Shown piece after piece: positions 6,235-27,180 of a stretch of DNA of 45,409 nt. The DNA is from an uncultured Hyphomonas sp. GTDB taxonomy: Bacteria; Pseudomonadota; Alphaproteobacteria; Caulobacterales; Hyphomonadaceae. How positions within the stretch are numbered: position 1 is the stretch's first letter; each line of letters begins with the position of its first letter. The translations under genes and the position numbers were made by a program. A model generated the notes under the pieces. That model did no database searches, was not told the DNA's origin, and worked only from the letters and a program-made list of their open reading frames with translations. The DNA lies in NCBI GenBank assembly GCA_964443965.1, contig CAYUFN010000003.1, forward strand, positions 1-45,409, written 5' to 3'.

Positions 6235-7254
6235 TTAGCGCCTGACAATCGAGCGTACGGGCGGCGTGAATTCATTCCAATCAAACTCAGTTAGTCGAAA
6301 CGCCCAGCCTTCCGCTTTTGTGTTGATCGTCTCAGCTCGCCGTGCGCCTTCACCTGCCTCGACAGCGCGTAAAGTTATGTAAAAGCCTTCAGGTTCACGG
6401 TAGGTGGAAACGTCTACTTCTAAGCCATCATGTGTTGATGTAATGTGACGCCCGACACGGCGCGTTTCAAGTGCGCTGGCAGGTTTGACATCGATTGGGG
6501 CAAGCCGGCTTAGCGCAAGCGCAGGACCTGAAGTCGTCAAACGGCTGATCAACTGGTCTGATTCATATGGAGGAGCAGGACGAAAAGCGCGCGCGCCTGC
6601 TCCAGGCTCCCGGCTGAGGTAAAGGCTCTCGCCACGTGCATCAGTAATGCGCACCGCCCCAATTACGTCTGTGGCCATATCAACAATATTGAGGTCGAGC
6701 CATGCTTCGCGCGTATAGAGCGGAGGGAGATCGCCAACAAGTCGAAAAGCGGTTGTTTCATCGGGACGACGTGCATACAGACGATCTTCGCGCCTGCCTG
6801 TGATAAGTGAGCTTATCACGGTGTCATCTTGGGCAATGACTTCAATATAGGCACCATTCCCGCCATTGGATGGATCCCCAAGGCCGATTAGCTTTAGCTT
6901 AGCGGGATCTGTTGTGCGTTTGGCACCCCATTCAAGACTGATTAAGCCCTCTGCCAGAGCAGCTAGACGATCTGGGCGCACTGGATAATTTCCAGATTCA
7001 ATCATGCCCCAGTCCTTGCCGCCTACTTGCCTGCGTTTGAGCGTATAAGAGCTATCGCCTAGACGCACGCGGATGATTTTTGCCTTGTCAATTGTTTGGC
7101 TCAGGCGCGGGAAAACAAAATGGCCTGTGCGTGGGCTACCATTATATTTTGCATGATTTGATAAGTTAAAGACACTCAATATAAAGAGACTAATCGTTGC
7201 AATGCTCAATCCCAGCAAAATGGCCTTGCGTTTGCCCTTGCGTATCTGGTTCAT
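6235..7254 (-). CDS. DUF4340-like membrane-anchored protein, last gene of the ABC/GldG-like operon
   Basis: 339-aa ORF with an N-terminal TM anchor (KAILLGLSIATISLFILSVF). It has a 4-nt overlap with the upstream GldG-like gene. Position and size match the DUF4340 partner usually found after GldG-like genes; family assigned by context and by eye. Confidence 0.65.
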   Translation of the reverse strand: MNQIRKGKRKAILLGLSIATISLFILSVFNLSNHAKYNGSPRTGHFVFPRLSQTIDKAKIIRVRLGDSSYTLKRRQVGGKDWGMIESGNYPVRPDRLAALAEGLISLEWGAKRTTDPAKLKLIGLGDPSNGGNGAYIEVIAQDDTVISSLITGRREDRLYARRPDETTAFRLVGDLPPLYTREAWLDLNIVDMATDVIGAVRITDARGESLYLSREPGAGARAFRPAPPYESDQLISRLTTSGPALALSRLAPIDVKPASALETRRVGRHITSTHDGLEVDVSTYREPEGFYITLRAVEAGEGARRAETINTKAEGWAFRLTEFDWNEFTPPVRSIVRR

Positions 7255-9134
7255 GTTTGTAACCTCTTTTTGCGCAACCAGATAAAGAAGCCAAGTAATA
7301 CAACAATTAATGGCCCGCCCCAGATATTCAGTAGGCGAAGTGTATTTTCTAGCCCATCAATCTCGCGGCGAAAATCTCTCTCAATGGCGCGTAAACGTTC
7401 GCGTGTTTCAAGAACGCTTTGGCGGAGTTCCCCAAGCTCTTGACGTTCTTCAGGGGTGAGGTCTGCATCAAGGTCTCCAGAGAAGAAACCGCCTGTCGCG
7501 CCAATTGTTTGCAATTCTTCTAGCCGACTCTGCGCCTGATCCAGTCTGTTTTCCAAGCGGGCCTGCTCATCAAAAAATTCATTCTGCGCCTTCTCCCTCA
7601 TGGCTTCAACACGAACCATTGGTCGCAGGTTGGGCGCGCGCGAGCGTAGTTGCAAAAGGTCGCTCCCGCCTGTCAGATTGTCCAGTGCATTCATAATAAA
7701 AGTTGCATTCTCCGCATATGGTGATCCTGAGCGGTGGTCGATATGGAAGGCATCATCGAGCATATCTGTATCTGCCAGAACAATGATTTCTGCCGGTTGA
7801 TTGCTAAGGTTGCGGTGCGGGCCTGCAGATTCACCCGAAAGACGAGCAAGCTCAGCGGCAACGGGATCACCGGCTTGGCTGATTGGTGGCCCAGATGGAA
7901 AAGCGGTCGTCAGGTTTCCTGATAATCTCGCTGCTAAGATCAAAGATGATTCAAGCGCGGAGTAAGCTTGCAAGACATCTTTTGGTGGCGCGTTCTGAAG
8001 CGCCAGATCTGGTGTGATGTAAGATGGTGATACGCTTGTAAAAAGTAGAGGGGTTGAAACGATTCCCGCTTTATCAAAAATCTTTAGTGCACCTGCCGCA
8101 CCTAAGTTTACAGTCAGGGACAATGGTGCGGTAATGGTATCTTCGAGGGCCATTGATCCGCGAGAAACCCCAATGAAAAGAGGCTGAGGGGCCTCGATTG
8201 TGCGGCCGTCCTCGGTGGTTGTAACGGTTAATGCGTTGCTGGCATCAGCAGCGACGTTTTCTTCAAGAGTGATGCCCCAAGCATCGCCAAGAATACCTAA
8301 GTCAGAGCGGGTATTTTGTCTGCCTGTACCGAAAATGCCACTTGCCTGTGCAATTGTTGAGGCAGGGTCGACTAGAATGAGGGCGCGACCTTTTTCAAGA
8401 ATGAATTGATCAATCAGGTAGGTCTGGCTTTCGGTAATGTTTGGCGCATGTGCGATGAGCAGGGCGTCAATTTCACTGGGAATGCTGGTAAAGTCGTCCT
8501 GAAGCGTTACGATGTTATATAAAGCAGCTATTTCACGCAGGATAAAGTAACCACCACTCTGTCCGTCTCCCTCCATATTAGGTAATTCAGTAATAATGCC
8601 GATCGTGGCAGGCTCAGGATTATCCAGACGTGCAACCAGACGAGTTAGGTCATATTCAAGTGTGGATTCACGCTCAGGCGCTAAAAAGGGGATGACAAGC
8701 TCATCATCAACAGCATTTCTGCCAATCAGACCAAAATACAGCGGGTCAGTCCCATCTGTAGCAACGGCAGTTATGCCTGCTGCCAAGGCTTGATCTTCAT
8801 CAATAGAGAATGGCGTTGGATCAATTTCAGCTAAGCGCAGATTTGCGCCGCCGAGGCCCTCATACGATTGAAGGACTTCTCTGACACGTTGCGCATAAGC
8901 CCGCACTGCCGGATAATCCTGGCCGACGCGGCGGGTATATACCAGTGTCAGGTCAATTGGTTCAGAGAGTTTCTGAAGCGTGGTTCTTGTTCCCTGACTT
9001 AATGTGAATTGCTTATTCTGTGTAAAGTCAATCCTCGCGCCTGCCGACAAAGACTGGACCAGTGTGTTAATGAGCAAAAAGATTATTAAGATCAGAGTGC
9101 TGATAGCAGGGATAAAAAAGCGATCAAACATCAT
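7251..9134 (-). CDS. GldG-like ABC-transporter auxiliary protein (ABC-type uncharacterized transport system)
   Basis: N-terminal TM segment, large extracytoplasmic body, C-terminal coiled-coil-like stretch (EKAQNEFFDEQARLENRLDQAQSRLEELQ) and a final TM segment (IWGGPLIVVLLGFFIWL). Start set at the ATG at 9134 (MMFDRFF...), which abuts the permease TGA, rather than the track start at 9179. Confidence 0.75.
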   Translation of the reverse strand: MMFDRFFIPAISTLILIIFLLINTLVQSLSAGARIDFTQNKQFTLSQGTRTTLQKLSEPIDLTLVYTRRVGQDYPAVRAYAQRVREVLQSYEGLGGANLRLAEIDPTPFSIDEDQALAAGITAVATDGTDPLYFGLIGRNAVDDELVIPFLAPERESTLEYDLTRLVARLDNPEPATIGIITELPNMEGDGQSGGYFILREIAALYNIVTLQDDFTSIPSEIDALLIAHAPNITESQTYLIDQFILEKGRALILVDPASTIAQASGIFGTGRQNTRSDLGILGDAWGITLEENVAADASNALTVTTTEDGRTIEAPQPLFIGVSRGSMALEDTITAPLSLTVNLGAAGALKIFDKAGIVSTPLLFTSVSPSYITPDLALQNAPPKDVLQAYSALESSLILAARLSGNLTTAFPSGPPISQAGDPVAAELARLSGESAGPHRNLSNQPAEIIVLADTDMLDDAFHIDHRSGSPYAENATFIMNALDNLTGGSDLLQLRSRAPNLRPMVRVEAMREKAQNEFFDEQARLENRLDQAQSRLEELQTIGATGGFFSGDLDADLTPEERQELGELRQSVLETRERLRAIERDFRREIDGLENTLRLLNIWGGPLIVVLLGFFIWLRKKRLQT

Positions 9135-9907
9135 CAACCTCGCCTGCGCGCGGCCCACAAGCCACCCAACAGAGACCAAAGCGCAATAAAGCCCAGAAAA
9201 TAAATGAGGGTGCGTAGTTCCAAAACGCCACGCTGAGCTGTCTCAAAGTGTGTCATAAAAGATAGCTGAGCGATTTGCTCTGCGATGAGTGGACCGAACG
9301 CATCACCAACGCCTGCCAGTACCAGCGGCCATCCTGCAACTGTGAACAGGAAGGCAATTGTAACTGAAATAACAAAGGCCGTGACTTGAGACTGCGTTAA
9401 GGCTGAAACAGCAGCACCAAGCGAAAGATAACAGCCAGCCATCAAAAAGCTCATGAAGTAAGCCAGTGCGATAGCTGCATTGTCGGCAGGCCCCAGATAG
9501 TTGACGCTAATCCACATCGGAAATGTCAGCACGAGCGTGACACCTGCAACTGTCCATGCAGCAAGGAGTTTCCCCAACATGATGCCACCAAGACCTACTG
9601 GGAGTGAAAAAAGCAGCTCGTCGGTTCCGCTGTTTTGTTCATCAGACCATAGCCGCATTGCAAGCGCGGGTAAGAAGATCATATACAACCAGGGGTGCCA
9701 GATGAAAAAGGGCGTTAAATCAGCACGGGCTGTATCGAAAAACCGGCCAACCTCCCAAGTAAATACGCCGATCGCCAAGAGGAATACGGCCATAAAAATG
9801 TAGGCCATTGGCGTGGTGAAATAGGTGTTGACTTCGCGTTTGTAGACAGCGGTAAAACCGGTAAACAAGTTGCTAATCTGTGTGTTTAGAGAAGACTTAT
9901 TTGTCAT
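9134..9907 (-). CDS. ABC-2 type transporter permease
   Basis: 257-aa polytopic hydrophobic ORF (about 6 TM segments). It has a 4-nt overlap with the upstream ATPase gene. Confidence 0.85.
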   Translation of the reverse strand: MTNKSSLNTQISNLFTGFTAVYKREVNTYFTTPMAYIFMAVFLLAIGVFTWEVGRFFDTARADLTPFFIWHPWLYMIFLPALAMRLWSDEQNSGTDELLFSLPVGLGGIMLGKLLAAWTVAGVTLVLTFPMWISVNYLGPADNAAIALAYFMSFLMAGCYLSLGAAVSALTQSQVTAFVISVTIAFLFTVAGWPLVLAGVGDAFGPLIAEQIAQLSFMTHFETAQRGVLELRTLIYFLGFIALWSLLGGLWAARRRG

Positions 9908-10638
9908 ACGGTTAGTCTCTCATTCGGGTTTGTTAACTCGCTAAAAACGCTCTCAAGGCCCCCATTATCAGCGGCTGAGGCCGCAAGCGCTTTTGGCGTG
10001 TCGTCAGCAACAATGCGTCCCCGGTCGATGATCGCCACGCGCGAGCACATCGCTGGCACTTCTTCGAGTGTATGTGTTGTAATGAGAATTGCTTTTTCTG
10101 CGGCCATACGCGTAATCAAGGCACGCACGGCGCGCTTCTGATTAGGGTCCAAGCCATCTGTTGGTTCATCCAGGAGCAAAACAGGTGGGTCTGTAAGGAT
10201 AGCCCCAGCAAGACCAACTCTCCTGCGAAACCCTTTAGAGAGCTCCCCGATGCGTTTGCCTGTGACTGCGCCAATGCGCGCATCAGCAGTTACACGTTCA
10301 ACGGCATTCTTACAGTCTTTGCTGCTTAAACCTCTGGCGCGCGCCAAGAACTGCAAGAAACCGGGCGGTGTCATGTCTTCATAGAGGGGTGCGCCTTCGG
10401 GCAGATACCCCAGCGCGCTTTGAGCAGCCCGGCGATGATACGTAATCGAGTGGCCGTTGATCAGTGCATCGCCGTCATCAGGTGTTAGGACGCCTGCAAT
10501 CATGCGAATCGTCGTGGATTTACCTGCACCGTTAGGCCCTAGAAACCCCAATACATCCCCTTTGTTGAGAGTAAGAGAAATCTTGTCCACAGCGCGTGTG
10601 CCGCCAAAACTTTTCGTTAGACCAGCCAGTTCAAGCAT
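9904..10638 (-). CDS. ABC transporter ATP-binding protein
   Basis: Walker A GPNGAGKST, Q-loop, signature LSKGFRRR and Walker B LLLDEPTDGLD. First gene of a four-gene operon. Confidence 0.93.
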   Translation of the reverse strand: MLELAGLTKSFGGTRAVDKISLTLNKGDVLGFLGPNGAGKSTTIRMIAGVLTPDDGDALINGHSITYHRRAAQSALGYLPEGAPLYEDMTPPGFLQFLARARGLSSKDCKNAVERVTADARIGAVTGKRIGELSKGFRRRVGLAGAILTDPPVLLLDEPTDGLDPNQKRAVRALITRMAAEKAILITTHTLEEVPAMCSRVAIIDRGRIVADDTPKALAASAADNGGLESVFSELTNPNERLTV

Positions 10639-14415: not shown

Positions 14416-14898
14416 ATGTTACGCTCAGCTCTTTTAGCAACCATCATGTTTGGTTCTGCCTATACGCCTGCTTTTGCACAGGAATTTACGGCAGTCTCAA
14501 CGATTGAACGGATGGTAACCACCGAAAATGCCGATGGAAGTGTTTCAGTAGAATTTCTGAAGGCCGAACGGGTAACCCCAGGGGAAAACCTCTATTATCA
14601 GCTCATTTACAACAATGCATCATCGGAGAATATCGAGGATGCAAGCCTGGTCATGAATGTGCCGCCAGAAGTGACTTATTCTGAAAATAGTGCAGAGATT
14701 GCAGGTAAAGACGTTCAGGTGTCCTTTTCAACTGATGGCGGACAGACATATGCTCCCCGAGGCGAGCTGAAAGTAACAATTGGCGGCCAGCCCCGCGCAG
14801 CAGTTTCTGAAGATATTACAAATATACGCTGGACCTTTAACGAGCCAATTGCGCCAGAAACAGAAGGCTCAGTGGGGTTTACAGCGATCGTTCGTTAA
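14416..14898 (+). CDS. small secreted single-domain DUF11-like protein (P1)
   Basis: Signal peptide MLRSALLATIMFGSAYTPAFA|QE and a GGAGA Shine-Dalgarno 5 nt upstream. PGENLYYQLIYNNASSENIEDASLVMNVPPEVTY fits the DUF11/TIGR01451 repeat pattern (PGd.v.Y.i...N.g...a.nv.v.d.lP.gl.y). Confidence 0.75.
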   Translation: MLRSALLATIMFGSAYTPAFAQEFTAVSTIERMVTTENADGSVSVEFLKAERVTPGENLYYQLIYNNASSENIEDASLVMNVPPEVTYSENSAEIAGKDVQVSFSTDGGQTYAPRGELKVTIGGQPRAAVSEDITNIRWTFNEPIAPETEGSVGFTAIVR

Positions 14899-14926: not shown

Positions 14927-14953
14927 AATGCGGGTCCCATTGGGGCCCGCATT
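14927..14953 (+). terminator. strong stem-loop after P1 (terminator or attenuating hairpin)
   Basis: AATGCGGGTCCC / GGGGCCCGCATT forms a 12-bp stem (one G-U pair) 29 nt after the stop codon. The downstream T-tract is weak (CATATTT). Confidence 0.55.
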
Positions 14954-15083: not shown

Positions 15084-16388
15084 ATGCTAGAAATAACAAA
15101 CCGCGCACACATGCCGCGCTCAATCAGAATGTTAACTGCGCTAGGGGCTGTAATGGCCTTTGCTGGCGCTGCACACGCTCAAGGCACCGATGCTGGACGC
15201 ACGGTTTCAAACACATTTACGCTGGACTACAGCGTCAACGATACACCTCAACCGCCAATCACTAATGAAGGGGGTGTACCTGGTGCGCCAGATGGCCCGA
15301 CCGTCTTCACCGTAGATCGGCTTATTGACTTGACCTTGACTGAAACCAATTCACCTCAACTTGTCGCGCCTGGGACACTTATTGCCGTTGATGGCGGCGG
15401 TGCATTGACATCCGATCCTGATCTTCAGCCGACTGTGCTGTCATACACTGTGACGAATACGGGTAACGACAATCAAGCTTATTCATTCGATATCTCAAGC
15501 CCAACTGGTACTTTTGCTGCAACCGGCTTTCGTATCTTTTACGAGGACGCTGCAGGTAATTTTGTAGAGCTTGCGGAGGTGGCTGCTGGATCTGGAGCGA
15601 CAACTCAAGTTACCGAAGACATTCCAGCTGGCGAAACGCGTAATATTTTTGTCCTTGCCGATATTCCTGCTGGTGCGAACAATAATGAGTTCGACGACAT
15701 TATCCTAACGGCTGAAACACGCGATCCAGAGTTTTGGGCGTTTGAGGGCCAGTTCACCACAGGGTTCAATCCTGATGGCACGGTCAATACGACGCCAGTC
15801 GCAGCACCTTCGCCGAATGCAACAGCTGGTGAAACAACAGGAAACGATGCTGGTGGCGCAAACGACCTCGTCAACGCCGCACAAAACGTCTTTGCTGATG
15901 GATCTGGTACAGCTGATGGAGACGCGGACGGTTTGTTCTCCGATACTGCGCAATACATCATTGCGGCACCAAATCTAACAGGTGTCAAAACGGTTGCCGT
16001 TATTGCAACAGACGGTGCGGCGATTACCTGTGGTGATTTCAGTGTAGCTGCTGTTTCTCCAAACGAGTTCACCACACCGGGTGCTTGTGTTGAATACACA
16101 ATTACAGTCACAAATAATGGTGCTGATGATGGCGCTGGGAACCCGCTACCTGCAGCGTCTGTTCTGGCAACTGGTATTGACGTTGTCGATATCTTGCCAC
16201 CGGAGCTTACATTCCTAAGTGCGCAGGCTCTTGGCTTTACTGTGGCGCCTACAGCTGATGCTCCGCCAACTGCAAATACTGTCTGTGATGGTACTGCTGG
16301 AACATGCCGTGTCGCATTTATCGATGGCGAACTAGCAGCTGATCCAGCTGCGCCCGGAGCAGTTGTTATAAGGGCACTCGTTCAGTAA
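15084..16388 (+). CDS. secreted protein with C-terminal DUF11-like domain (P2)
   Basis: Signal peptide ...LTALGAVMAFAGAAHA|QG and a GGAGAGG Shine-Dalgarno 7 nt upstream. The C-terminal module PGACVEYTITVTNNGADDG...VVDILPPELTFLS is DUF11-like. The protein is Thr/Ala/Gly/Asp-rich with paired cysteines. Confidence 0.8.
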   Translation: MLEITNRAHMPRSIRMLTALGAVMAFAGAAHAQGTDAGRTVSNTFTLDYSVNDTPQPPITNEGGVPGAPDGPTVFTVDRLIDLTLTETNSPQLVAPGTLIAVDGGGALTSDPDLQPTVLSYTVTNTGNDNQAYSFDISSPTGTFAATGFRIFYEDAAGNFVELAEVAAGSGATTQVTEDIPAGETRNIFVLADIPAGANNNEFDDIILTAETRDPEFWAFEGQFTTGFNPDGTVNTTPVAAPSPNATAGETTGNDAGGANDLVNAAQNVFADGSGTADGDADGLFSDTAQYIIAAPNLTGVKTVAVIATDGAAITCGDFSVAAVSPNEFTTPGACVEYTITVTNNGADDGAGNPLPAASVLATGIDVVDILPPELTFLSAQALGFTVAPTADAPPTANTVCDGTAGTCRVAFIDGELAADPAAPGAVVIRALVQ

Positions 16389-16417: not shown

Positions 16418-16458
16418 AAGGCTCTCGCGCTGTAAAAAGTGCGGGAGCCTTATCATTT
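16418..16458 (+). terminator. rho-independent terminator after P2
   Basis: AAGGCTCTCGC / GCGGGAGCCTT forms an 11-bp stem with a 12-nt loop, followed by ATCATTTT. Confidence 0.65.
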
Positions 16459-16578: not shown

Positions 16579-19500
16579 ATGATGATGGGCTTCCTCCCAA
16601 ATCTCATACGTGTATGGTGCGTAATGTTATGTGCGATGGTCTGGATGCCAATCGCACCCGTGCACGCTCAGCCAGCTACTGGCACTGAGATTCGAAATAC
16701 CGCAACGGTCTCATTTAATCAGGGCGCAGGGCGTCTGACCCTTACAACAAATGAAGTTGTCCTGGTGCTTGAAGCAGCGCGCACAGCATCCACAATTGAA
16801 TTTTTCCGCTTCGCCCCAAACTCAGATGTCGGCATTACGACGATGATCAATGGAAGTCAGTTTAGCCCATTGGGAGACCTGAACGGGCCTTTTATAGGTA
16901 TCGGCCCGCCAATATCCTCTAACGGACTTTTACTTGATCTTTCCGGCCCTGTGACCCTTACATCAGCGACACGCTATTTGGCTGGTGAGCTGATGTTCAT
17001 CCGTGTTCAAGACCCAGGCCAAAATAGCTCTCCGTCAATTATTGAAACTTTGACTGTTCGCGTTACTGCAAGCACAGGCGATGAAATCGTCTTGCAGTTA
17101 TTTGAATCTGGCCCCGATACAGGTGAGTTCTTTGCTTATATTCCATCTTCGCCCGACCCTACAGAGCTAAATGATAATACATTATCTACACCAGACAACA
17201 CACAACTGACCGCAACTTATGCGGATTCCTTTGATGCTAGCGATATTTCGATAGATACCGCTATTATTGATCCGTTTAGTCGAGTATTTGATAGTATTAC
17301 CGGCGAGCTTCTCAATAATGTTCGGGTCACGATTGTGGACTTGGATACTGGGCAGCCGGCAGATGTCTGGGGTGTGGCCGGTGTATCCAGTTTCCCGTCA
17401 ACTGTTGAGACAGGGACAATTGCGATTGATAGCGGCGGCCTGCAATATCCGCTTGGGCCTGGTGAGTTTGTCTTTCCTGTCTTGGAAGAAGGCAATTATG
17501 AGCTGCAACTCGCGACCCCGGAAGGCTATGTCTTTGCCTCCATTCTTACAAATGGGCCGTTTGATACCCTCGATAACGCACCATTCAGGGTTATTCCGGG
17601 CTCATTTGGGGAAAGTTTTCGTGTTGAGGAACTTGGACCTTTAAACTTTGATGTGCCCCTTGACGGCGTAGGTGAGCTTGTTGTGACAAAAGAGGCGGCC
17701 ACCAGCGTTGGCGCTGTGGGTGACTTTGTTCCCTATACCGTAAATATTGAGAACAGAAATGAAGCTGCGGTTGTTTTGCGGGTGCGAGATGTTTTACCAC
17801 AAGGCTTGCGCTATCAGGAGGGAACGGCGCGACTTGATGGAGTATCTATTTCGGATCCAGATATATCGCTCGATGGATCTACACTTACGTTCGATGGAGG
17901 CGTGATAAGATCGGCTGAGTCTGCTGCGCTGACCTATGTTGCGTTAGTGTCTGCTGGCACGCCTTTAGGTGAGGCTGTGAACGAGGCTTTTGCCCTTGAT
18001 GGAGCAGGGAATACAATTTCCAATCGCGCAGAGGCGGCAATTATTATTCAAGAAGATTTATTGCGGTCAACGCTGACCATCATCGGGCGTGTGGCTGAGG
18101 ATGCCTGCCGCCCAGACCAGGAGTGGGCGCGTGATATTGAGAATGGTATCGGCGTTGGAGGTGTTCGCCTCTACCTGGAAACTGGCGATTATGTTGTGAC
18201 AGATGAAGATGGCCTCTATCATTTTGAGAACGTGCTGCCAGGCACGCATGTCGTGCAAGTTGATGAAGAAACACTACCAAAAGGTTATGAGCCAGTTATC
18301 TGCGAAGAAAATACGCAGTATGCAGGCAGCGCGATCTCTAAATTTGTAGATGCGACAGGTGGGACGATCTGGCGGGCAAACTTCTATCTGGAGCGCACAG
18401 GAGATTTGGAGGTCGAAGAGATTGATGAGCAATTCAGCGATGGCCTGGAATATCTTGAATTTGACGATACCTGGCTTGATGAACAAGATGACGCTGTTGA
18501 ATGGGTGTATCCTGACACAACTCGCACGCCCTCTACGCTGAGTGTCAATATCGGTATCAAGCATGGCGCTTTTGATCGCGTAAAAATGACACTTAACGGC
18601 CAGCCTGTACCAAGCTTAAATTTTGGTGGGACTGACACGTCGTCGAACCGTCAAGTTGCGATAAGTAGGTGGCGTGGGCTGGATATCCTTAAAGGACGCA
18701 ACATTGTTAAGGCTGTTGTTGAAGATCAATTTGGAAATGTGCGCACCGAACTAAGTAAAGATATAAGATTTATATCTGAGGTCGAAAGCGCTACTCTGGT
18801 TGATGATCAATCAAGACTTGTGGCTGATGGGCGAACAAATCCTGTTATTGCGGTACGCTTAACAAACTCAGCTGGCCGTGCGGTTCATGCTGGTCGTCAG
18901 GTAAATATAGACCTTGCGCCGCCATATCGCCTGCAAAGTACTGAAAACTTTGAAGGGCAGGCGGCTGTGGACGCTGCATTGTCAACCACAGCGAGCGTCG
19001 AGGTTGGGCCTGATGGGATCGCATATGTCCAGCTGGCTCCAACTCTGGAGACTGGCAAGGCGCGCCTGTTCGTCACGCTGGATAATGCACCACAAGAGGA
19101 AATTGAAGTCTTCTTGCGCCCTGAGAAACGCGACTGGATTCTCGTTGGCCTCGCTGAAGGCTCTCTTGGGTTAGAACGCCTTGATGGACCAGGTACGATT
19201 GACGCGAACGATCTTCTCAATGAAGGGCGCCTGGCCTTCTTTGCCAAAGGTGTGATCAAGGGTGACTGGCTGCTGACGCTGGCTGTGGATACAGCCAAGC
19301 GTCGCGGGGATGCCGATGGGGATCTTTTTGGAGGCCAAATTGATCCAAATGCATTCTATACCCTCTATGGCGACCGAACTTTCCAGGATAAAGAAGCTGA
19401 GAGTCGTTACCCGCTTTACGTCAAGCTGGAGAAGGGAACGTTCCAGGTCTTGTTTGGCGACTATGATACTGATTTGAATGATACCCAACTTGGTCGTTAT

Positions 19501-21657
19501 AATCGCCGCTTATCCGGTTTGCGTTCAGTTTATGAAGGGGATAATGTTTCGTTCTCTGCATTCGCGGCTGAAACCAATCAGGGTTTCCAGCGCCAAGAAA
19601 TTGCAGCTGATGGAACATCTGGAACCTTCACTTTAGATGCTGCGCCTCTTATCAGAAATTCGGAGACAATTACTGTCGAAACACGTGATCGTTTCCGTCC
19701 TGATATTGTTGTTAGCACTTTAAATCTTGCGCGATTTGTCGATTACGATATCGATTTCAACACTGGAGAGATTATCTTCCGTCGCCCAATCGCGGCGACA
19801 GATGCTAGCTTCAATCCGAATGTGATTGTTGCCGAGTATGAGACCTCAGCTGCTGTTGAACGTAATATCATTGCCGGTGGACGGGTGGCTGTGCGCGCAT
19901 TGGACGATCGTATTGAGGTTGGCGCGACCTACATTCGGGAAGAGGGGAGTGACACTGTTAGTGATGCTGTTAGTCAGTTAGCTGGTGTTGATCTAACCAT
20001 ACAGATCGATAGCAAAACTGAGCTGCATGCAGAATATGCTGTCACTAAAAATGATAGCGCGGTTCAGGCGACCGGCGAGCCAAACGAGGCGGATGCTTTA
20101 TTGGTCGAAGTAATCCGGCGCCAGGAGGCTTTAACTGTGGGTGCCTATTACCGCGAAGATGAAGCAGGCTTTGGTCTTGGGCAGCAATCTTCTGCAACGA
20201 CAGGAGGCGTGCGTCGATTTGGTGCGACGGTTAGCGCTGAAATTGGCAAGGAGCGCAGCGAGGAGTCTACGCGCCGGGCCAGACATTATGTTGAAGCTGA
20301 AGCTTATCGCGAAGAAAGCCTGCAAACCGGTGATACGCGAAATGTGATTGAGGGCGCGTTGCGCAGAGATGGACCCCTGCTCAATGCCAGCATTGGTTTG
20401 CGCACGATCGAAGAAGACTTTGAAGCCTTGGAAGATGGTGCGCGCCGTTCAACTTTGATTACGAGTTCTGTCAACAAGAACTTTGCAAAGTGGGGGCTGA
20501 ACCTTTCAGCAAGTCATGAGCAACCGCTTGGGGGTGAGGATGAGTCAACCAGCTTCCCGCAACGTACAATTCTCGGCGTTGATAAGACGATTACGAAAAA
20601 GGCAACGCTTAACGTTCGCCACGAAATTCTTGATGGCGATAACGCTGATGGGAATAACACAGCGATTGGTGTAACAGTTCAGCCATTCAACGGCACCACC
20701 GTGACAGCCGCTGCTGACCTTATTACGCAAGATAGCGCGCGCCGTATTGGGGCAACTGTTGGGGTTGATCAGGTTATCCGTATCAATGAGAATTGGTCAG
20801 CAGGTATAGGCGTCGCGCGGCGTGCGAATATTTCTGATACAGGCACACCACTTGATGTTCTGCCTGATGCTGCACTCTCGCCTTTAGAAACGGCGCCAGC
20901 TAGCCCGTTAACACAGACGAATGCATTCACATCTGCCTATCTTGGTCTGGGCTATACGGGCGAAAAGACTGCGGCAGCGACACGTTATGAAATTCGTGAC
21001 AGTGCGCTTGGTACCCGTCACGCAGCAACCTTCGGGGCAGCCAGAGAAGCCAATGATGTGCTCTCTTATGCCTTGGCCAGCAGGCTTGAGGCCAATAATG
21101 CTGACGAGGCGAATGATACATTGCGCTTTGATTCGCGCCTTGGTCTGGCTTATCGCCCGCGTGCCAATAATGGGCCTGTGATCTTCAACCGATTTGATGC
21201 CTCATATAACCGCGTGACAGGGCAATCTGAGACTTTCAAGCTGGTCAATAATTTTGCGATCAATAGCTATATTGGTAAGCGGACCCAATTGACGGCTTTT
21301 CACGGGTTCAAATACAATAAATCAAACTTCCTTGGTGACTCATTTGACTCTGTCACCAACCTGATTGGTGGTGAAGTGCGCTATGATGTGACGAGAAAAA
21401 TTGATCTTGGTTTATCTGGCTCAGCATTGATTTCCGATAGTGGGCAGACCGATTATCAAATCGGCCCTTCTGTAGGGTTTTCACCAGTAGAGAACACCTG
21501 GTTAACTCTCGGTTGGAATGTAAAAGGCTTTAATGACAATGACTTCGAAGCTGCTGAATTTACGCGTGACGGACCATTTATTAAGCTCCGGGTAAAGTTT
21601 GACCAACATACTGCGCGCGGGCTGCTGGATAGAATTTCTCCCCGCGGTCGTAATTGA
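16579..21657 (+). CDS. giant secreted protein with N-terminal Ig-like/CnaB-like/DUF11 modules and a ~830-aa C-terminal predicted outer-membrane beta-barrel (P3)
   Basis: 1692-aa uninterrupted ORF with signal peptide ...[11 protein letters not shown] DUF11-like module covers aa ~365-485 ([33 protein letters not shown]). CarboxypepD_reg/CnaB-like motifs include [34 protein letters not shown]. A Big_1-like module is [23 protein letters not shown]. The C-terminal part is dominated by short amphipathic strands and ends near [10 protein letters not shown]. Confidence 0.85.
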   Translation: [1692 protein letters not shown]

Positions 21658-21686: not shown

Positions 21687-24600
21687 TTGGGCAATAGGGC
21701 AGACATAAGATCGCTTTGTTATGCGAAGCTTTTTAAGGGGGCGAGGCAGGCAGCAATTATTTTGCTGGCGGGCTTCTTTGCGCTGACGGCGTCTGCCCAG
21801 ACGGTGACATACTCTGAGAACTTTACCGCCGGCGTTGCGAATGATCCGGGCAGTCCCCAAGTCGATAATTGGGAAGCCTTTCGGGACGGTCTTACGGCGA
21901 CATATACAAATATCACCGTTGGTGGTTCGCAAGGGCCTGATGTTTCCTGTTCAGATCCGGCTGCGATTGCTGCGATTACGACAGCCCTGAATACAGATGC
22001 GACCGCCTCGGTACCTTGTGATGGCAGAACATGGAATGTGGGAACATGTATCGGAACCAACGAGCTCTCAATTGATGTTGGGGTTTGTACATGTCAGGGG
22101 GCGAGCCCTTTTACCTTGCGCCCGGATGTTGATGCAGGGAATGCAGCGTGGGGAGGGATCGGTGCAACGTGTGGCCCCGGCGCTTCGGGTGCAGGCTCGA
22201 ATGTGGACCAAACACTAACTGTCTCCGTTACCGAGCCTGCAAGCATCCCTGATCTTTCACTGTCTATTGCACCAGCGAGTTTGTCTCCCTCGGTAGGCGC
22301 GAACACATTTCTTGACATTCTTCTTGATAATAGCGGTTTAACCGCTGCAACTGGCGTGGAGGTCTCTGCGTTGTTGCCGTCGGGCTTAACGTTTGTGTCT
22401 GATGATTCTACGGGTGCTTACAATCCATCGACGGGCATCTGGAGTGTTGGGAACGCGGCATCTGGGAGCACGCAGCGCTTACGGCTTCTTGTGAACGTTG
22501 CGCCAGCAGGAAGCTATACAATGAATGCAGAGGTCACCGCTGCGAATGAGGTTGATTTCGATTCAACTCCTGGGAACGCTGCTACAGCCCCCGGAGAAGA
22601 TGATAGTGATGTTGTCACATTAACGCCAGTCACGCCGCCACCGCCACTTTTCTGTCTCGGTCGTCCGATACAGCCACTTGTATTTACCGATCCAGTTGTT
22701 GAAAGCCCCGGCGCGAGCATTGCTGCGCCACAAGTTGGTGATGTTTTCCGCTTTCCTGAGGTTTCGCCTGGTGTTGATGCGCTTGTTGAAGTAGCAGCTT
22801 TTAATAATGGCGCAAGCTTGGCTGGAATTGATAATGATGGAACGGCGATTGCCCCCATTGGGGTGCCTGATAACTTTCAGCCGACATTGGTTGGCCCTGC
22901 TGGGGACGTATCAGTTGATTTTCAAATCACGATTGTTGCGACCGGTACCAGCATTCCCGGGACGCTCGATTTTGCGGGCAGTGCGATTGATGTAGATGGC
23001 GATAGTGGAAGCTTACGCGAATACATTGAAGTTTCGAACAACATTGTTGAATTTGCGCTAAATGGCGTCATTTTTGATGATCCGGCAGATCCCGCTGATG
23101 TTCCTGATGATACGCGTTTGATCACGCAAGCCAACTCACCGCCAGACCCGACAGCTTCAGCCCCATCATCTGCTGCTCGCATAAGATTTGAGGCTGAGAC
23201 CGTCGATACGGCGGCGAGCATCAATCCGGATGAGCCAAGAAATATTGCTGCGGCTTTCTTTACCGATGTCTCTGTATTTGAATACAGGATAGGTAAATTC
23301 GGAGGGGCCACGACGGGGCGCTTAAATTCCCTGGCATTTAATTGTCCAGCCATTGATCCAGGTGCCGGAGGGAGCTCACCAGTCTTGGAAGAAGACTTTG
23401 GTGATGCCCCCTTTGATGCGGTCACGAACCCAGGGTACGGGAACCCGATTCACGTCATTGATCCAGCAGCGCCAACCGTTCAAATAGGGGCTTTGAATAC
23501 AGGTGAAACTGAAGCTGGAAACAGTGCAACCGCCTCATCAGATGCAGGTGATGACGGTGTTACAATCGGTGGCTTAAGCTTGCAGGGGCAAACTCTTCAA
23601 GGGCTGGCCCCGGCAACAATATCTGTTGCTGTTACCAATGCGTCGGCTGATCCAGGTTTGCTGCAGGTCTTTATTGATTGGAATATCGATGGAGATTTTG
23701 ATGATGCGGGCGAGCATGTGGTCGTCGATGAGCAAGATGCTGATGATGATGGGCTTATCACGCTGAACATTACCCCGCCCGCTACTACGGTTGCCGGTAC
23801 GAGTTTTGCTCGCTTCCGTTGGGCAACCAGTGCGGTTGATGTACAGGAGGCTGTTGCTGATGGTGAGGTTGAGGACTACCAGATTGTATTGCTCGCTGCG
23901 CCGCCTGCAGACCTGAACCTAACGCTAACTGCATCAAATGTGGCGCCTGTCCCGGGTGAAACAATCAGCTTGACGGTAACGATTAATAATGAAGGTCCTA
24001 GCACTGCAAGCGGGATTACCACAACAATCCCTTTACCTGCCGGCCTGACCTTCGTTTCCAGCGATGCTGGCGCAAACTATGATGAGACAACAGGTCTTTG
24101 GGTTGTGCCAGGTGATTTGGCAAATGGTGATAATATAATTTTGACGATACAGGCGACGGCTGTCGCGCTTGGAACGAGTAACCTTTTGGCGGAGATCACC
24201 ACAGCTTCGCCTAGCGATCCGGACTCAACGCCAGGAAATGCTGGTACCGTACCGGCCGAAGATGATACGGATACAGAAACAATTACTGTTGTGTCCAGTC
24301 CGCCTGTCTGTCCAGCAGGATTGAATCTGTCTGCGACCGGAGGAACGGCAGTTAGCGTTACATCGGAAACGGGTATCGATAATGCAAACTTTGCGCTTGG
24401 GGCGCTTTCCTCAGCAGGTACCGCGCCACCTGATCCGACCGCTGCTCTCCTGAATCTGAGCGGCAGTAGCGTTCTCGTGCTTGATCTGGGTGTAGTTGTA
24501 CCTGAAAATGCGCTTTTAACATTTTCGCTCGCACGGGACGATGATGTCGCCGTTAATAACACTATGCTGGAAATTCGTGGGTCTCTTGATGCGTCTGCAT

Positions 24601-25238
24601 TTCCTGATGTGTTTGGCGTTTACAGCACAGGATCAACGACTGGATTTATCGCAAACGCGCCGCAAAATACAATTGAGCATATTACTGTTGCTGTGCCATC
24701 GGGCGGTCTGCAGTTCTTACAGTTCGATATTTTGACTGGTGATAATGCTTTCGTAGATGGGATAAGCTTTACTCAGTCCTGTGTGCCAGGTGCAGAGCTT
24801 GAAGGCGTGAAAACTGTCGAAGTTTTTGATCCGCTGGGTGAGGGCTTGTTTGCGCTACCTGGAAATGATGTGACCTATACGATCACTATTAGTAACATTG
24901 GTGGCGGGGATACAGATGATGATAGTATTTTCCTGATTGATGAGCTGCCGCCTGAAGTCGTGTTCTTTAATGGTGACGCAGATGGTCCGGGACCTGGCCT
25001 GGATCCTGTAAATTTTGCAGAACTAACGGCCACAGGGCTAGACCCATTCGTGTTTAATGACAGTGTGCGCTTTGCAGGTGTTGGATCGGCCCCAGCGGAT
25101 TTTGATGCTTGTGGCTTAGTGCCCCAACCTGGATATGATCCAGATGTTCGGTATGTCTGTTTTAATCCTCAGGGGATGATGCAAGCAGGAGACCCGGACC
25201 CGAGTTTTGCGCTCTCTTTCCGGGTGCGTATCCAGTAA
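21687..25238 (+). CDS. large secreted multidomain protein with a Cys-rich N-domain, three DUF11-like modules and a GEVED-motif domain (P4)
   Basis: 1183-aa ORF starting at TTG 21687, with a GAGGGG Shine-Dalgarno 5 nt upstream, 30 nt after the P3 stop. Signal peptide ...FFALTASA|QT. DUF11-like modules lie at aa ~188-315, ~740-869 and ~1035-1183. The stretch DFGDAP...FARFRW...GEVEDY (aa ~567-735) is the GEVED-domain signature. Confidence 0.85.
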   Translation: MGNRADIRSLCYAKLFKGARQAAIILLAGFFALTASAQTVTYSENFTAGVANDPGSPQVDNWEAFRDGLTATYTNITVGGSQGPDVSCSDPAAIAAITTALNTDATASVPCDGRTWNVGTCIGTNELSIDVGVCTCQGASPFTLRPDVDAGNAAWGGIGATCGPGASGAGSNVDQTLTVSVTEPASIPDLSLSIAPASLSPSVGANTFLDILLDNSGLTAATGVEVSALLPSGLTFVSDDSTGAYNPSTGIWSVGNAASGSTQRLRLLVNVAPAGSYTMNAEVTAANEVDFDSTPGNAATAPGEDDSDVVTLTPVTPPPPLFCLGRPIQPLVFTDPVVESPGASIAAPQVGDVFRFPEVSPGVDALVEVAAFNNGASLAGIDNDGTAIAPIGVPDNFQPTLVGPAGDVSVDFQITIVATGTSIPGTLDFAGSAIDVDGDSGSLREYIEVSNNIVEFALNGVIFDDPADPADVPDDTRLITQANSPPDPTASAPSSAARIRFEAETVDTAASINPDEPRNIAAAFFTDVSVFEYRIGKFGGATTGRLNSLAFNCPAIDPGAGGSSPVLEEDFGDAPFDAVTNPGYGNPIHVIDPAAPTVQIGALNTGETEAGNSATASSDAGDDGVTIGGLSLQGQTLQGLAPATISVAVTNASADPGLLQVFIDWNIDGDFDDAGEHVVVDEQDADDDGLITLNITPPATTVAGTSFARFRWATSAVDVQEAVADGEVEDYQIVLLAAPPADLNLTLTASNVAPVPGETISLTVTINNEGPSTASGITTTIPLPAGLTFVSSDAGANYDETTGLWVVPGDLANGDNIILTIQATAVALGTSNLLAEITTASPSDPDSTPGNAGTVPAEDDTDTETITVVSSPPVCPAGLNLSATGGTAVSVTSETGIDNANFALGALSSAGTAPPDPTAALLNLSGSSVLVLDLGVVVPENALLTFSLARDDDVAVNNTMLEIRGSLDASAFPDVFGVYSTGSTTGFIANAPQNTIEHITVAVPSGGLQFLQFDILTGDNAFVDGISFTQSCVPGAELEGVKTVEVFDPLGEGLFALPGNDVTYTITISNIGGGDTDDDSIFLIDELPPEVVFFNGDADGPGPGLDPVNFAELTATGLDPFVFNDSVRFAGVGSAPADFDACGLVPQPGYDPDVRYVCFNPQGMMQAGDPDPSFALSFRVRIQ

Positions 25239-25280: not shown

Positions 25281-25919
25281 ATGAGTGTTAAACTGAAAAT
25301 TTGCGGGTTATCGGAGCCTGAGACTCTGCGCGCAGCGGTGCAGGCGGGGGCTGACTGGATTGGTTTTGTTTTCTTTGAACAAAGTCCACGCAATGTTACT
25401 TTAGCAGCTGCTGAAAGCTTGCTTTTGGGCATGGGGACGGCCGCGCCTGTTGGGTTAATGGTAGACCCTGATGATGTGATGGTGCGCGATGTGTTAGGAC
25501 TTGGTATTCGCACCCTGCAGCTACACGGCAGTGAAACACCTGCACGTGTACGCGAGATTCAAGTGCTGGGCGGCGTTGACGAGGTATGGAAAGCCATTGG
25601 TGTTGCTTCCAAAGATGATCTGGCCTTTGCCGAAACTTATGCTGATGTGGCTGATCGTTTATTGCTGGATGCCAAGCCGCCAAGCAAAGCTGCTGTGCCC
25701 GGTGGAGCGGGCGAGGCGTTTGACTGGGCTTTACTGAAAGACTGGACCGCGCCAATGCCATGGCTTCTGGCAGGCGGGCTGACACCGGAAAACGTACAAG
25801 AGGCGATCACTGCGACAGGCGCGCGCGCTGTGGATGTCTCCTCTGGCGTTGAGCGCGCGCGTGGGTTAAAGAGTGCACAGAAGATTAGAGAGTTCATCGC
25901 GGCGGCAAAACAGCCTTAA
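25281..25919 (+). CDS. trpF: phosphoribosylanthranilate isomerase
   Basis: MSVKLKICGL..., LQLHG and LLAGGL motifs, located directly upstream of trpB. Confidence 0.93.
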   Translation: MSVKLKICGLSEPETLRAAVQAGADWIGFVFFEQSPRNVTLAAAESLLLGMGTAAPVGLMVDPDDVMVRDVLGLGIRTLQLHGSETPARVREIQVLGGVDEVWKAIGVASKDDLAFAETYADVADRLLLDAKPPSKAAVPGGAGEAFDWALLKDWTAPMPWLLAGGLTPENVQEAITATGARAVDVSSGVERARGLKSAQKIREFIAAAKQP

Positions 25920-25968
25920 ACATGGCCTTAAGGAACTTTAGGCACCCAGAACAACAAATGAGTGAGTT

Positions 25969-27180
25969 ATGAGCCAGACCAATACGTGGGATCAATATCC
26001 AGATGAAAATGGCCGCTTTGGTGCGTTTGGCGGGCGCTATGTTGCCGAAACACTGATGCCGCTGATCCTTGATCTGGAGGCTGAATATAAGGCCGCCAAG
26101 CAAGACCCGGCTTTCAAGGCGCAGATGGATGATTTATGGGCGCATTATGTTGGCCGGCCAAGCCCCTTATATTTTGCCGAACGGATGAGCGGGCATTATG
26201 GCAAGGCGAAGATCTATTTCAAACGCGATGAGCTGAACCATACCGGCGCGCACAAGATCAATAATTGTCTTGGGCAGGTTCTCCTCGCCATGCGTATGGG
26301 TAAAACTCGGATAATCGCCGAAACTGGCGCAGGCCAGCACGGCGTGGCGACGGCGACCGTGTGCGCACGCTTCGGCTTGAGATGCGTGGTGTTCATGGGT
26401 GCAACCGATGTTGAGCGCCAGAAACCAAATGTCTTCCGTATGAAACTGCTCGGCGCAGAGATTGTACCTGTCACCTCTGGCACGGGCACTTTGAAAGATG
26501 CGATGAACGAGGCCTTGCGTGATTGGGTAACGAATGTTGACGAGACATTTTATTGCATTGGCACGGCGGCAGGCCCGCACCCTTATCCACAATTGGTACG
26601 TGATTTTCAGTCTGTCATTGGCCGCGAAGCCCGTGCGCAAATACTCGAACGGGAGGGGCGCTTGCCCGACGCTGTGATGGCATGCATTGGCGGAGGATCA
26701 AACGCAATTGGCCTTTTCCATCCTTTCCTTGAGGATGAAAGCGTCAAGCTGATCGGCGTGGAAGCCTCTGGTCACGGCGTGGAGACGGGCATGCATGCAG
26801 CCGCGCTCAATGGCGGGGAGCCGGGTATTCTGCATGGGAATAAAACCTATCTCTTGCAGGATGAAGCCGGACAAATCTTTGATGCCCATTCTATTTCAGC
26901 CGGACTTGATTATCCGGGCATCGGGCCAGAGCATGCTTTCCTGTTTGAAACAGGGCGGGCTGAGTATCTCTCCTGTAAGGACACCGAAGCGCTGGAAGCC
27001 TTCCAGCTTTGCACGCGCCTTGAGGGGATCATCCCTGCGCTTGAACCCTCTCACGCGCTCGCCCGTTTACCTGAGGCGCTCGGACGTATTCCAGACGACG
27101 GCCTCCTTATCATGAACCTCTGCGGACGCGGCGATAAGGACGTCTTCTCAGTGGCAGAGCATTTGGGCGTAGAGATTTGA
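25969..27180 (+). CDS. trpB: tryptophan synthase beta chain
   Basis: [17 protein letters not shown], the PLP-lysine region [11 protein letters not shown], and GGGSNAIG. Confidence 0.97.

Follow-up and report, generated by a model that had tools for sequence, protein, structure and literature searches.

The largest known single-chain outer-membrane beta-barrel is SprA, the translocon of the type 9 secretion system (T9SS), which has 36 strands (PDB 6H3I; 10.64898/2026.03.07.710327) and is confined to Bacteroidota-type lineages (10.1101/2022.10.09.511469). A giant barrel superfamily with 38 and 40 predicted strands (families 002/003) was described by Solan, Pereira, Lupas, Kolodny and Ben-Tal (PNAS 2021; PMC8346858). 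Among adhesin domains, DUF11 has been renamed CLIPPER, a CnaA-like stalk domain which can carry an isopeptide bond and which is found in Gram-negative adhesins with OmpA-like anchors, e.g. Acinetobacter silvestris B9T28_05395 (PDB 9IFR) (PMC12617251). Here, we describe P3, a protein of 1692 amino acids (aa) with a CLIPPER domain ahead of a predicted giant barrel, which is encoded in a stretch of 45,409 nucleotides (nt) from an uncultured Hyphomonas sp. (assembly GCA_964443965.1, contig CAYUFN010000003.1, positions 1 to 45,409 of the forward strand); this whole stretch is referred to as the window. The results show that P3 is a strongly conserved, real feature, and they suggest that it is an outer-membrane barrel protein of a surface or secretion system. 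In our preferred reading, to which we give a probability of about 0.45, P3 serves an uncharacterised surface-fibre or adhesin system as its platform or conduit in the outer membrane.

P3 is the open reading frame (ORF) at 16579..21657 on the plus strand, with an ATG start. An earlier reading of the window made from the letters alone (the sequence-only reading) had proposed this ORF and quoted several of its peptides, and all of them are present at or near the positions it gave: RVTIVDLDTGQPADVWG at aa 249-265, GNYELQLATPEGYVF at aa 305-319, an acidic stretch at aa 611-638 (nt 18409-18492), a peptide starting LGLAYRPR at aa 1521-1546, LTAFHGFKYNKSNF at aa 1571-1584, WLTLGWNVKGFNDNDF at aa 1641-1656 and GPFIKLRVKF at aa 1665-1674. 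The features of P3 are listed below, with structural predictions from AlphaFold2 (AF2) and its confidence given as the predicted local distance difference test (pLDDT).

16579..16668, plus strand: Sec signal peptide, aa 1-30; cleavage predicted between VHA and QP from the pattern of n-, h- and c-regions, read by eye
16669..17283, plus strand: D1, aa 31-235, N-terminal all-beta domain (AF2 pLDDT ~80-94; 28-46% identity across phyla)
17284..17670, plus strand: D2, aa 236-364, CnaB/CarboxypepD_reg-like beta-sandwich (weak match in P3, E 0.028; AF2 confident)
17671..18048, plus strand: D3, aa 365-490, DUF11/CLIPPER (CnaA-like) domain (Pfam PF01345 at aa 367-471)
18049..18399, plus strand: D4, aa 491-607, SdrD_B/CnaB-like domain (Pfam SdrD_B at aa 524-573, 30.2 bits vs a gathering score of 29.7 bits)
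18400..18513, plus strand: acidic linker, aa 608-645 (pLDDT <50 at model residues 581-587)
18514..19122, plus strand: D5-D6, aa 646-848, two Ig-like domains (AF2 confident), the second Big_1/Invasin_D3-like
19123..19647, plus strand: C1, aa 849-1023, first part of the C-terminal module and best-conserved part of P3 (AF2 predicts up to 8 strands here, with mixed confidence)
19648..19827, plus strand: C2, aa 1024-1083, an insert of ~60 aa within the strand series (pLDDT <50 at segment residues 176-235)
19828..21600, plus strand: C3, aa 1084-1674, 32 consecutive long antiparallel strands (AF2 DSSP, pLDDT ~80-90)
21601..21657, plus strand: basic tail of 18 aa (DQHTARGLLDRISPRGRN), then the stop codon (helix predicted at segment residues 828-838)

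The C-terminal module of P3 was predicted to fold as a long meander of barrel-type strands. When aa 849-1692 were modelled with AF2, pLDDT was 80-90 over aa ~1082-1675, where DSSP assigned 32 strands with a mean length of 12.5 residues (compared to 6.9 residues in the Ig-like part) and turns of mostly 2-9 residues. Eight further, weaker strands lie upstream of the 32 confident ones, which brings the AF2 total to up to 40. The per-strand face analysis showed that the barrel strands alternate hydrophobic and polar faces; beta-sandwiches do so too, hence this result is supportive only. A Foldseek search of the module against the PDB gave 136 matches at E<=1e-3, and the best 50 of these 136 are nearly all outer-membrane barrels with a probability near 1, with the Deinococcus SlpA complexes ranked first (E 9e-8), followed by TonB receptors, LptD, MtrB and FimD. 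The last strand, GPFIKLRVKF, is beta-signal-like with Phe as its final residue, and a short, conserved helix is predicted after it; the tail consensus KFDQxTAxGLLDRISP is kept in 36 sequences, and KFDQ is retained in distant relatives. The sequence-only reading had counted 17 residues in the basic tail, whereas 18 follow GPFIKLRVKF. Its proposal of a very large, barrel-like C-terminal region fared better, since the structure prediction it had suggested as a check returned a barrel-type meander and the Foldseek matches point to outer-membrane barrels; the claim of an unusually large barrel was, if anything, understated according to the model. Counts of windows with alternating hydrophobicity were dropped, as soluble beta proteins could not be told apart by them from known barrels (LptD, FimD, FhuA). 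Taken together, these results suggest that aa 849-1692 form one very large outer-membrane beta-barrel of at least 32 and probably ~40 strands, predicted to equal or exceed in size every single-chain barrel solved so far.

No sequence match for aa 849-1692 was found in Pfam, NCBIfam or the PDB, including searches with family profiles at permissive thresholds, and no homology emerged when aa 849-1108 of 18 relatives were searched permissively against Pfam and PDB profiles; the second check suggested by the sequence-only reading, a match to a known barrel family, came back empty in Pfam, NCBIfam and PDB profile searches. The start of the module is strongly conserved across phyla, with 46-62% identity in C1 (R851, W853 and G857 are invariant) and 40-65% in the C2 insert, though C2 is poorly modelled. 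C2 is a candidate plug or gate, and aa 849-1083 as a whole may form a functional core, possibly a gate or plug.

The predicted strand count of P3 (32 confident, up to 40) falls in the range of the 2021 giant barrel superfamily, as compared by description only, and P3 may belong to that superfamily. Those families are, like P3, in-silico single-chain barrels above any solved size whose function is not known; they were described without the operon, the N-terminal architecture and the OmpA variants that we found for the P3 family. SprA is a very large single-polypeptide outer-membrane barrel, as P3 is predicted to be, and its lumen, which passes folded substrates, serves as our working analogy. 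In contrast, there is no sequence similarity between the two: P3 has no SprA family match in Pfam or NCBIfam, PDB profile searches were empty, and SprA is absent from the best 50 Foldseek matches, so P3 was rejected as a SprA. SprA works with the T9SS components PorV and Plug and an inner-membrane motor, and no gene matching a T9SS component was detected in the P3-type operons examined. In the literature, we found no paper on the operon that contains P3 or on any characterised member of its family and, beyond the in-silico prediction of 2021 and the CLIPPER paper, nothing on a characterised member or a 40-stranded barrel.

The 844-aa C-terminal module was found in 2911 representative clusters at E<=1e-3 and in 1119 at E<=1e-30 (clusters are 50% identity representatives), and the spread over 2911 clusters is far beyond chance. 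In the members listed, the module sits at the C-terminus or close to it, in proteins of mostly 1600-3000 aa from Caulobacterales, Parvularculaceae, Desulfobacterota, Alpha-, Gamma- and Zetaproteobacteria, Nitrospirota and others. The close relatives are full-length (~1650-1950 aa) and come from Hyphomonadaceae, Henriciella, Hellea, Robiginitomaculum, Algimonas, Parvularculaceae and Marinicaulis, with Hellea balneolensis DSM 19091 as a cultured carrier among them; the distant members are named merely "hypothetical protein" or "OmpA family protein". The C-terminal core therefore defines a large unnamed family without a Pfam model or an informative name. Every domain of P3 aligns across phyla, with D4, C1 and C2 best conserved and the barrel strands proper at 30-45% identity. 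As read from these alignments, this is the conservation pattern of a conserved machine and not of a variable adhesin passenger. Members that appear short (~1000 aa) were checked in two long contigs (L089 6925-12994 and L090 8492-13090), in which they are preceded by small fragments with CLIPPER/OmpA matches, and these are probably giant genes broken by frameshifts in long-read assemblies. Since the genes are fragmented in both contigs, the ~1000-aa members are not evidence of stand-alone barrels.

Of the distant representatives, 63 of 119 have an OmpA peptidoglycan-binding domain, compared to 0 of 120 close relatives. The median distance from this domain to the barrel module that follows is 274 aa, which puts it between D4 and the two Ig domains next to the barrel, in the region of the chain where P3 has its acidic linker. 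OmpA-type domains are periplasmic, and D5-D6 are therefore most likely periplasmic as well, as judged from the domain order of the relatives. Some relatives also add long cadherin arrays at the N-terminus (P0162).

The N-terminal half of P3 was divided into six domains, D1-D6. AF2 modelled aa 31-860 as a chain of beta-sandwich domains with a mean pLDDT of 85.8 (43-sequence alignment), and the Foldseek matches of this half are the adhesins and pilins UafA, SdrD, RrgB, EbpB and PrgB and macroglobulin-type domain strings. P3 is predicted to be exported via Sec, and the signal peptide that the sequence-only reading had placed at aa 1-30 agrees with the n/h/c-region pattern. An alternative gene call (P0001) starts at Met16 and gives a product of 1677 aa, 15 residues shorter; the ATG at 16579 fits better, because the Met16 start gives a signal peptide without a charged n-region. 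Pfam scans of the window proteins were done at E<=0.01; D1 has no Pfam match even at E<=10. The order of modules proposed by the sequence-only reading for the rest of the chain largely holds. Its first CnaB/CarboxypepD_reg-like module (D2) is weak in P3, while the equivalent module of the relative P0146 is a clear CarboxypepD_reg match (E 6.8e-11), and its DUF11-like and second CnaB-like modules (D3 and D4) both exceed the Pfam gathering scores, D3 with 31.4 bits against 24.6 for DUF11/CLIPPER. The P3 family profile also matches the CLIPPER crystal structure 9IFR (E 2.3e-8). CLIPPER-domain-containing protein is the only class to which P3 can be assigned, and this labels one domain, not the whole protein. 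The sole two cysteines of mature P3, C510 and C575, are both in D4 and are invariant in 43 sequences, which suggests a disulfide formed outside the cytoplasm; D4 is also the best-conserved N-terminal domain (44-70% identity across phyla). The acidic linker is where it had been predicted and is disordered in the AF2 model. As for the Ig-like and Big_1-like modules, the Ig-like folds are modelled with confidence, while the Big_1 match at aa 735-848 (D6) is weak and below threshold (E 0.0026; Invasin_D3 E 0.0034); this module does lie ahead of the barrel, the reverse of the intimin/invasin order, as had been noted. No SLH (S-layer homology) or other peptidoglycan-binding domain was found in P3 by the Pfam scan. 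The P3 family shares with the CLIPPER fibrillar adhesins the CLIPPER domain and, in its distant members, an adhesin stalk with an OmpA-type anchor. Those adhesins end in the OmpA-like anchor, with no barrel listed in the published scheme (PMC12617251), whereas the P3 family continues into the ~840-aa barrel module.

P3 is the third gene of a conserved unit, p160, p434 and P3, which is followed in the window by a fourth gene, p1183; the sequence-only reading had missed this operon. The features of the operon around P3 are as follows.

14416..14898, plus strand: p160, 160 aa, secreted single-domain CLIPPER/DUF11-like protein (ORF and signal peptide)
14927..14953, plus strand: GC-rich, terminator-like hairpin after p160 (free energy, dG, -21.9 kcal/mol)
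15084..16388, plus strand: p434, 434 aa, secreted protein with a C-terminal DUF11/CLIPPER domain (Pfam DUF11 E 1.9e-5; signal peptide)
16418..16451, plus strand: intrinsic-terminator-like hairpin between p434 and P3 (14-bp stem, T-rich tail, dG -26.0)
21687..25238, plus strand: p1183, 1183 aa, secreted protein with two DUF11 domains and a GEVED domain (DUF11 E 3e-40; GEVED E 4.5e-12)

Among the 59 loci with enough flank, a p434-like gene is directly upstream of the P3 homologue in 55 and a p160-like gene is upstream in 52. Desulfobacterota and Pseudomonadales have the order p160-p434-P3 too, often together with an additional DUF11-type gene or two. p160 is conserved into Desulfobacterota and Gammaproteobacteria, and 17 of 18 members weakly match DUF11; an invariant Asp-box-like FSxDGGxTF and an EDITHIRW motif are kept from Alphaproteobacteria to Desulfobacterota. 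The p160 alignment showed no conserved lysine suggestive of an isopeptide bond. That p160 and p434 are copies of P3 domains was rejected, as BLASTP against the P3 N-terminus shows no similarity. Compared to coding and shuffled control sequences, the hairpins are strongly enriched: after p434, a hairpin of -15 or stronger is present in 61 of 61 related loci and one of -20 or stronger in 56 of 61 (controls, 4 of 61), and after p160 a hairpin of -20 or stronger is present in 18 of 40 related loci (controls, 4 of 61). The hairpins after p434 are GC-rich and have T-rich tails in all related loci, their stem sequences vary among loci, and their presence in 61 of 61 suggests that attenuation is conserved or that the small genes are transcribed separately and at a high level. 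Known pilus operons have a leaky terminator behind the gene of the major subunit, and this subunit is thereby kept in excess. The hairpins of p160 and p434 fit this precedent, with abundant subunit genes ahead of a low-copy assembly gene, and the resemblance of the P3 operon to pilus operons is suggestive.

The p1183 gene begins 30 nt after P3 with a TTG start, and no hairpin was found between the two genes. A p1183-like large CLIPPER gene is directly downstream of the P3 homologue in 18 of 66 loci; in L089, the same position is taken by a 3242-aa CLIPPER protein. This accessory gene is a candidate for encoding cargo or an adhesin, and p1183 has no barrel or OmpA anchor of its own.

The ushers (FimD, PapC) offer a parallel in layout. 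As predicted for P3, their large barrel has an insert inside it and periplasmic beta-sandwiches on its flanks, and their gene comes after small Ig-like subunit genes; known pilus operons have an attenuating hairpin after the major subunit gene, which is the layout of the P3 operon. In contrast, ushers have 24 strands compared to at least 32 in P3, the subunits of ushers are incomplete Ig folds with donor-strand extensions whereas those of the P3 operon are CLIPPER/CnaA-like, and there is no homology. Ushers are defined by the Usher barrel and plug (PF00577) with PapC N- and C-terminal domains; P3 was rejected as an usher, since the Pfam scan found no barrel family and hhalign of the aa 849-1108 profile against FimD gave a probability of 0.6%. 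A PapD-like chaperone gene is also lacking in the P3 operon: in the window and in the distant loci, the operon genes show DUF11-type matches or none.

In our preferred reading of P3 as a platform or conduit, P3 would leave the cytoplasm by Sec, and BAM, the beta-barrel assembly machinery, would insert the C-terminal ~840 residues into the outer membrane, where they would form a single barrel with a minimum of 32 strands and probably ~40. The barrel would hold the highly conserved N-terminal segment of the module and the ~60-aa insert as a possible gate or plug. D5-D6 would remain in the periplasm, together with the OmpA domain in half of the distant relatives. By standard barrel geometry, a lumen of 32-40 strands would have a backbone radius of ~29-37 Å, with room for folded Ig-like domains. 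The barrel could then serve as both conduit and anchor, displaying folded CLIPPER/CnaB-type domains on the surface. The displayed cargo would be p160 and p434, apparently made in excess as structural subunits, and further cargo could be large CLIPPER adhesins such as p1183 where present and possibly the D1-D4 stalk of P3 itself. We also advance, more tentatively, that p160-p434-P3, with optional giant CLIPPER adhesins, could be a new outer-membrane secretion or assembly pathway, widespread in Pseudomonadota, Desulfobacterota and Nitrospirota, in which a ~40-strand barrel, larger than the 36 strands of SprA, passes and anchors folded, disulfide- or isopeptide-cross-linked CLIPPER/Ig-like proteins as a surface fibre without a chaperone, an ATPase or a known secretion component. 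If the model holds, the P3 family would include some of the largest membrane barrels made of one polypeptide in biology, at 32 to ~40 strands compared to the 36 of the largest solved one. It would raise the questions of how BAM can fold a barrel of this size, how a lumen several nanometres across is gated, and how Gram-negatives display folded, perhaps isopeptide- or disulfide-cross-linked CLIPPER/CnaB stalk domains without a sortase. The conserved three-gene operon is a directly testable system, with Hellea balneolensis DSM 19091 as the cultured carrier.

Several results weigh against this reading. The overall confidence of the model of aa 849-1692 is moderate (mean pLDDT 69; predicted template modelling score, pTM, 0.49), most of the best-conserved stretch, the 235 residues of aa 849-1083, is poorly modelled, the strand series was read from DSSP and not from 3D coordinates, and closure into a single barrel is inferred from the model. 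The template modelling scores (TM-scores) of the Foldseek matches are low (~0.1-0.25), which would be expected if the barrel differs in size from every template. Aromatic residues make up 7% of the barrel region compared to 14-15% of the LptD and FhuA barrels, and ~15% of the residues on the hydrophobic faces are charged. Mean-field direct coupling analysis (DCA) of 333 family sequences (~263 effective; 548 strand columns) recovered adjacent hairpins weakly, with ~1-2 vs a mean of 0.33 for non-adjacent ones, and it showed no early-to-last strand pairing; the alignment of ~263 effective sequences is too shallow for this to count against closure. In the operon, the hairpins might merely delimit transcription units of their own, a conserved gene for a chaperone, an ATPase or another means of energy coupling is lacking, and the surface location of p160, p434 and p1183 and their contact with P3 are inferred only.

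The low aromatic content and high charged fraction, together with the moderate confidence, the closure taken from the model and TM-scores of ~0.2, would be accounted for if the C-terminal region were not a membrane barrel at all but a beta-rich structure, soluble or extracellular, which happens to come out of AF2 and Foldseek as an up-down meander. We regard this as quite improbable, given 32 uninterrupted long antiparallel strands with short turns that match almost solely outer-membrane barrels, a last strand that resembles a beta-signal, an adjacent OmpA domain in relatives, and the independent prediction of giant outer-membrane barrel families of 38-40 strands (PMC8346858). If the region is a barrel, P3 could still be a divergent usher, TonB-dependent receptor, LptD or SprA; members of the first three classes are among the Foldseek matches, and the conserved insert after the first strands recalls the plug of ushers and TonB receptors. 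The sequence-only reading had likewise placed the region near ushers, LptD and TonB receptors in size, and had seen no plug or usher motifs. The region is indeed very large, but its predicted 32-40 strands exceed the 22-26 of those classes, and the absence of such motifs was confirmed: the Usher, Plug, TonB_dep_Rec, LptD and SprA models are unmatched in Pfam and NCBIfam, PDB profile searches are empty, and hhalign of the C1+C2 profile gave probabilities of 0.6% for FimD and 0.1% for FhuA, so a plug of usher or TonB-receptor type was rejected by sequence. For TonB-dependent receptors, the Plug domain (PF07715) and the 22-strand TonB_dep_Rec barrel (PF00593) are not matched and the Foldseek matches are generic (TM 0.11-0.19), as they are for LptD, a 26-strand barrel with an N-terminal LptA-like jellyroll (TM ~0.2); P3 was rejected as either. 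No TonB-box-like sequence was noticed in P3, though no search was aimed at one. With a predicted strand count above 26 and no PapD-like chaperone gene detected in the operons scanned as well, membership in any of these four classes is the least probable of the explanations considered.

The sequence-only reading had framed P3 as a passenger with its own barrel. On this account P3 would be a self-contained autotransporter-like adhesin, with D1-D4 or D1-D6 as the passenger through its own barrel and the neighbours as independent surface proteins. The order of signal peptide, adhesin-type beta-sandwiches (CnaB, CLIPPER, Big_1-like) and C-terminal barrel is consistent with this, as is the adhesin habit of the cadherin arrays at the N-terminus of some relatives (P0162), and types Va and Ve likewise combine Ig-like adhesin-type domains and an outer-membrane barrel in one polypeptide, with a Big_1-like domain adjacent. 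The framing is nevertheless doubtful and the account unlikely, because across phyla the core N-terminal domains match or exceed the barrel in conservation, a periplasmic OmpA domain separates the barrel from the supposed passenger in 63 of 119 distant relatives, and the partner genes p160 and p434 are tightly co-conserved. The barrel of P3 is also ~3 times larger (~840 aa and at least 32 strands, compared to 12 strands in type Va), with no autotransporter match in Pfam (autotransporter beta-domain model, PF03797). P3 does not qualify as type Va, either on the barrel or on its conserved N-terminal domains, where type Va has a variable passenger joined to the barrel by a pore-spanning linker. 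It does not qualify as type Ve since the Pfam scan found no barrel family (IAT_beta is PF11924) and the Big_1-like module is N-terminal to the barrel, the reverse of the type Ve order. A structural role, in which P3 is an outer-membrane-to-periplasm tether or a large pore with its N-terminal chain as a periplasmic stalk in the manner of SlpA/OmpM, p160 and p434 periplasmic and nothing secreted, appears about as probable as the autotransporter-like account. The best Foldseek matches of P3 are the Deinococcus SlpA/SDBC complexes (8AE1, 8AGD, 7ZGX; E 9e-8 to 1.6e-6), in which SlpA, a trimer, has a 30-strand barrel with an N-terminal SLH domain; the OmpA-bearing half of the distant P3 relatives likewise combines a periplasmic wall-binding domain with a giant barrel C-terminal to it, and the entire P3 chain is evenly and highly conserved. 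In contrast, the TM-score to SlpA is only ~0.24, and P3 has no SLH domain, coiled coil or any wall-binding domain; by domain content P3 does not qualify as an SlpA/OmpM-type tether, since a wall-binding domain is lacking in P3 and in 120 of 120 close relatives. CLIPPER, CnaB, GEVED and cadherin domains are moreover typical of extracellular stalks and adhesins (PMC12617251), and adhesin-like giant CLIPPER genes are recurrently linked downstream of P3 homologues.

Other genes were seen next to the operon in the window and in related loci. A four-gene ABC-2 cluster (ABC_tran, ABC2_membrane_2, ABC_transp_aux/DUF7088, DUF4340) lies upstream of the operon at 6235-10638 on the minus strand, and the same cluster is present in a Henriciella genome (L001 2169-6569); the shared position may reflect a functional link or simply the synteny of the lineage. 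In L002 (1-7676), a Tad pilus cluster (RcpC, secretin, TadE, ATPase) adjoins p160-p434-P3 in divergent orientation. In two loci of Gammaproteobacteria type (L084 1-3804 and L085 1-5285), the operon is preceded by divergent genes for a response regulator of OmpR type and for a hybrid protein of ~2000 aa (Ser/Thr kinase, AAA_16, GAF, HisKA), which are candidate regulators. trpF and trpB follow directly after the operon at 25281-27180, as they do in Henriciella (L001), and the operon island sits in a housekeeping context with a GC content of ~0.49-0.52, similar to its flanks.

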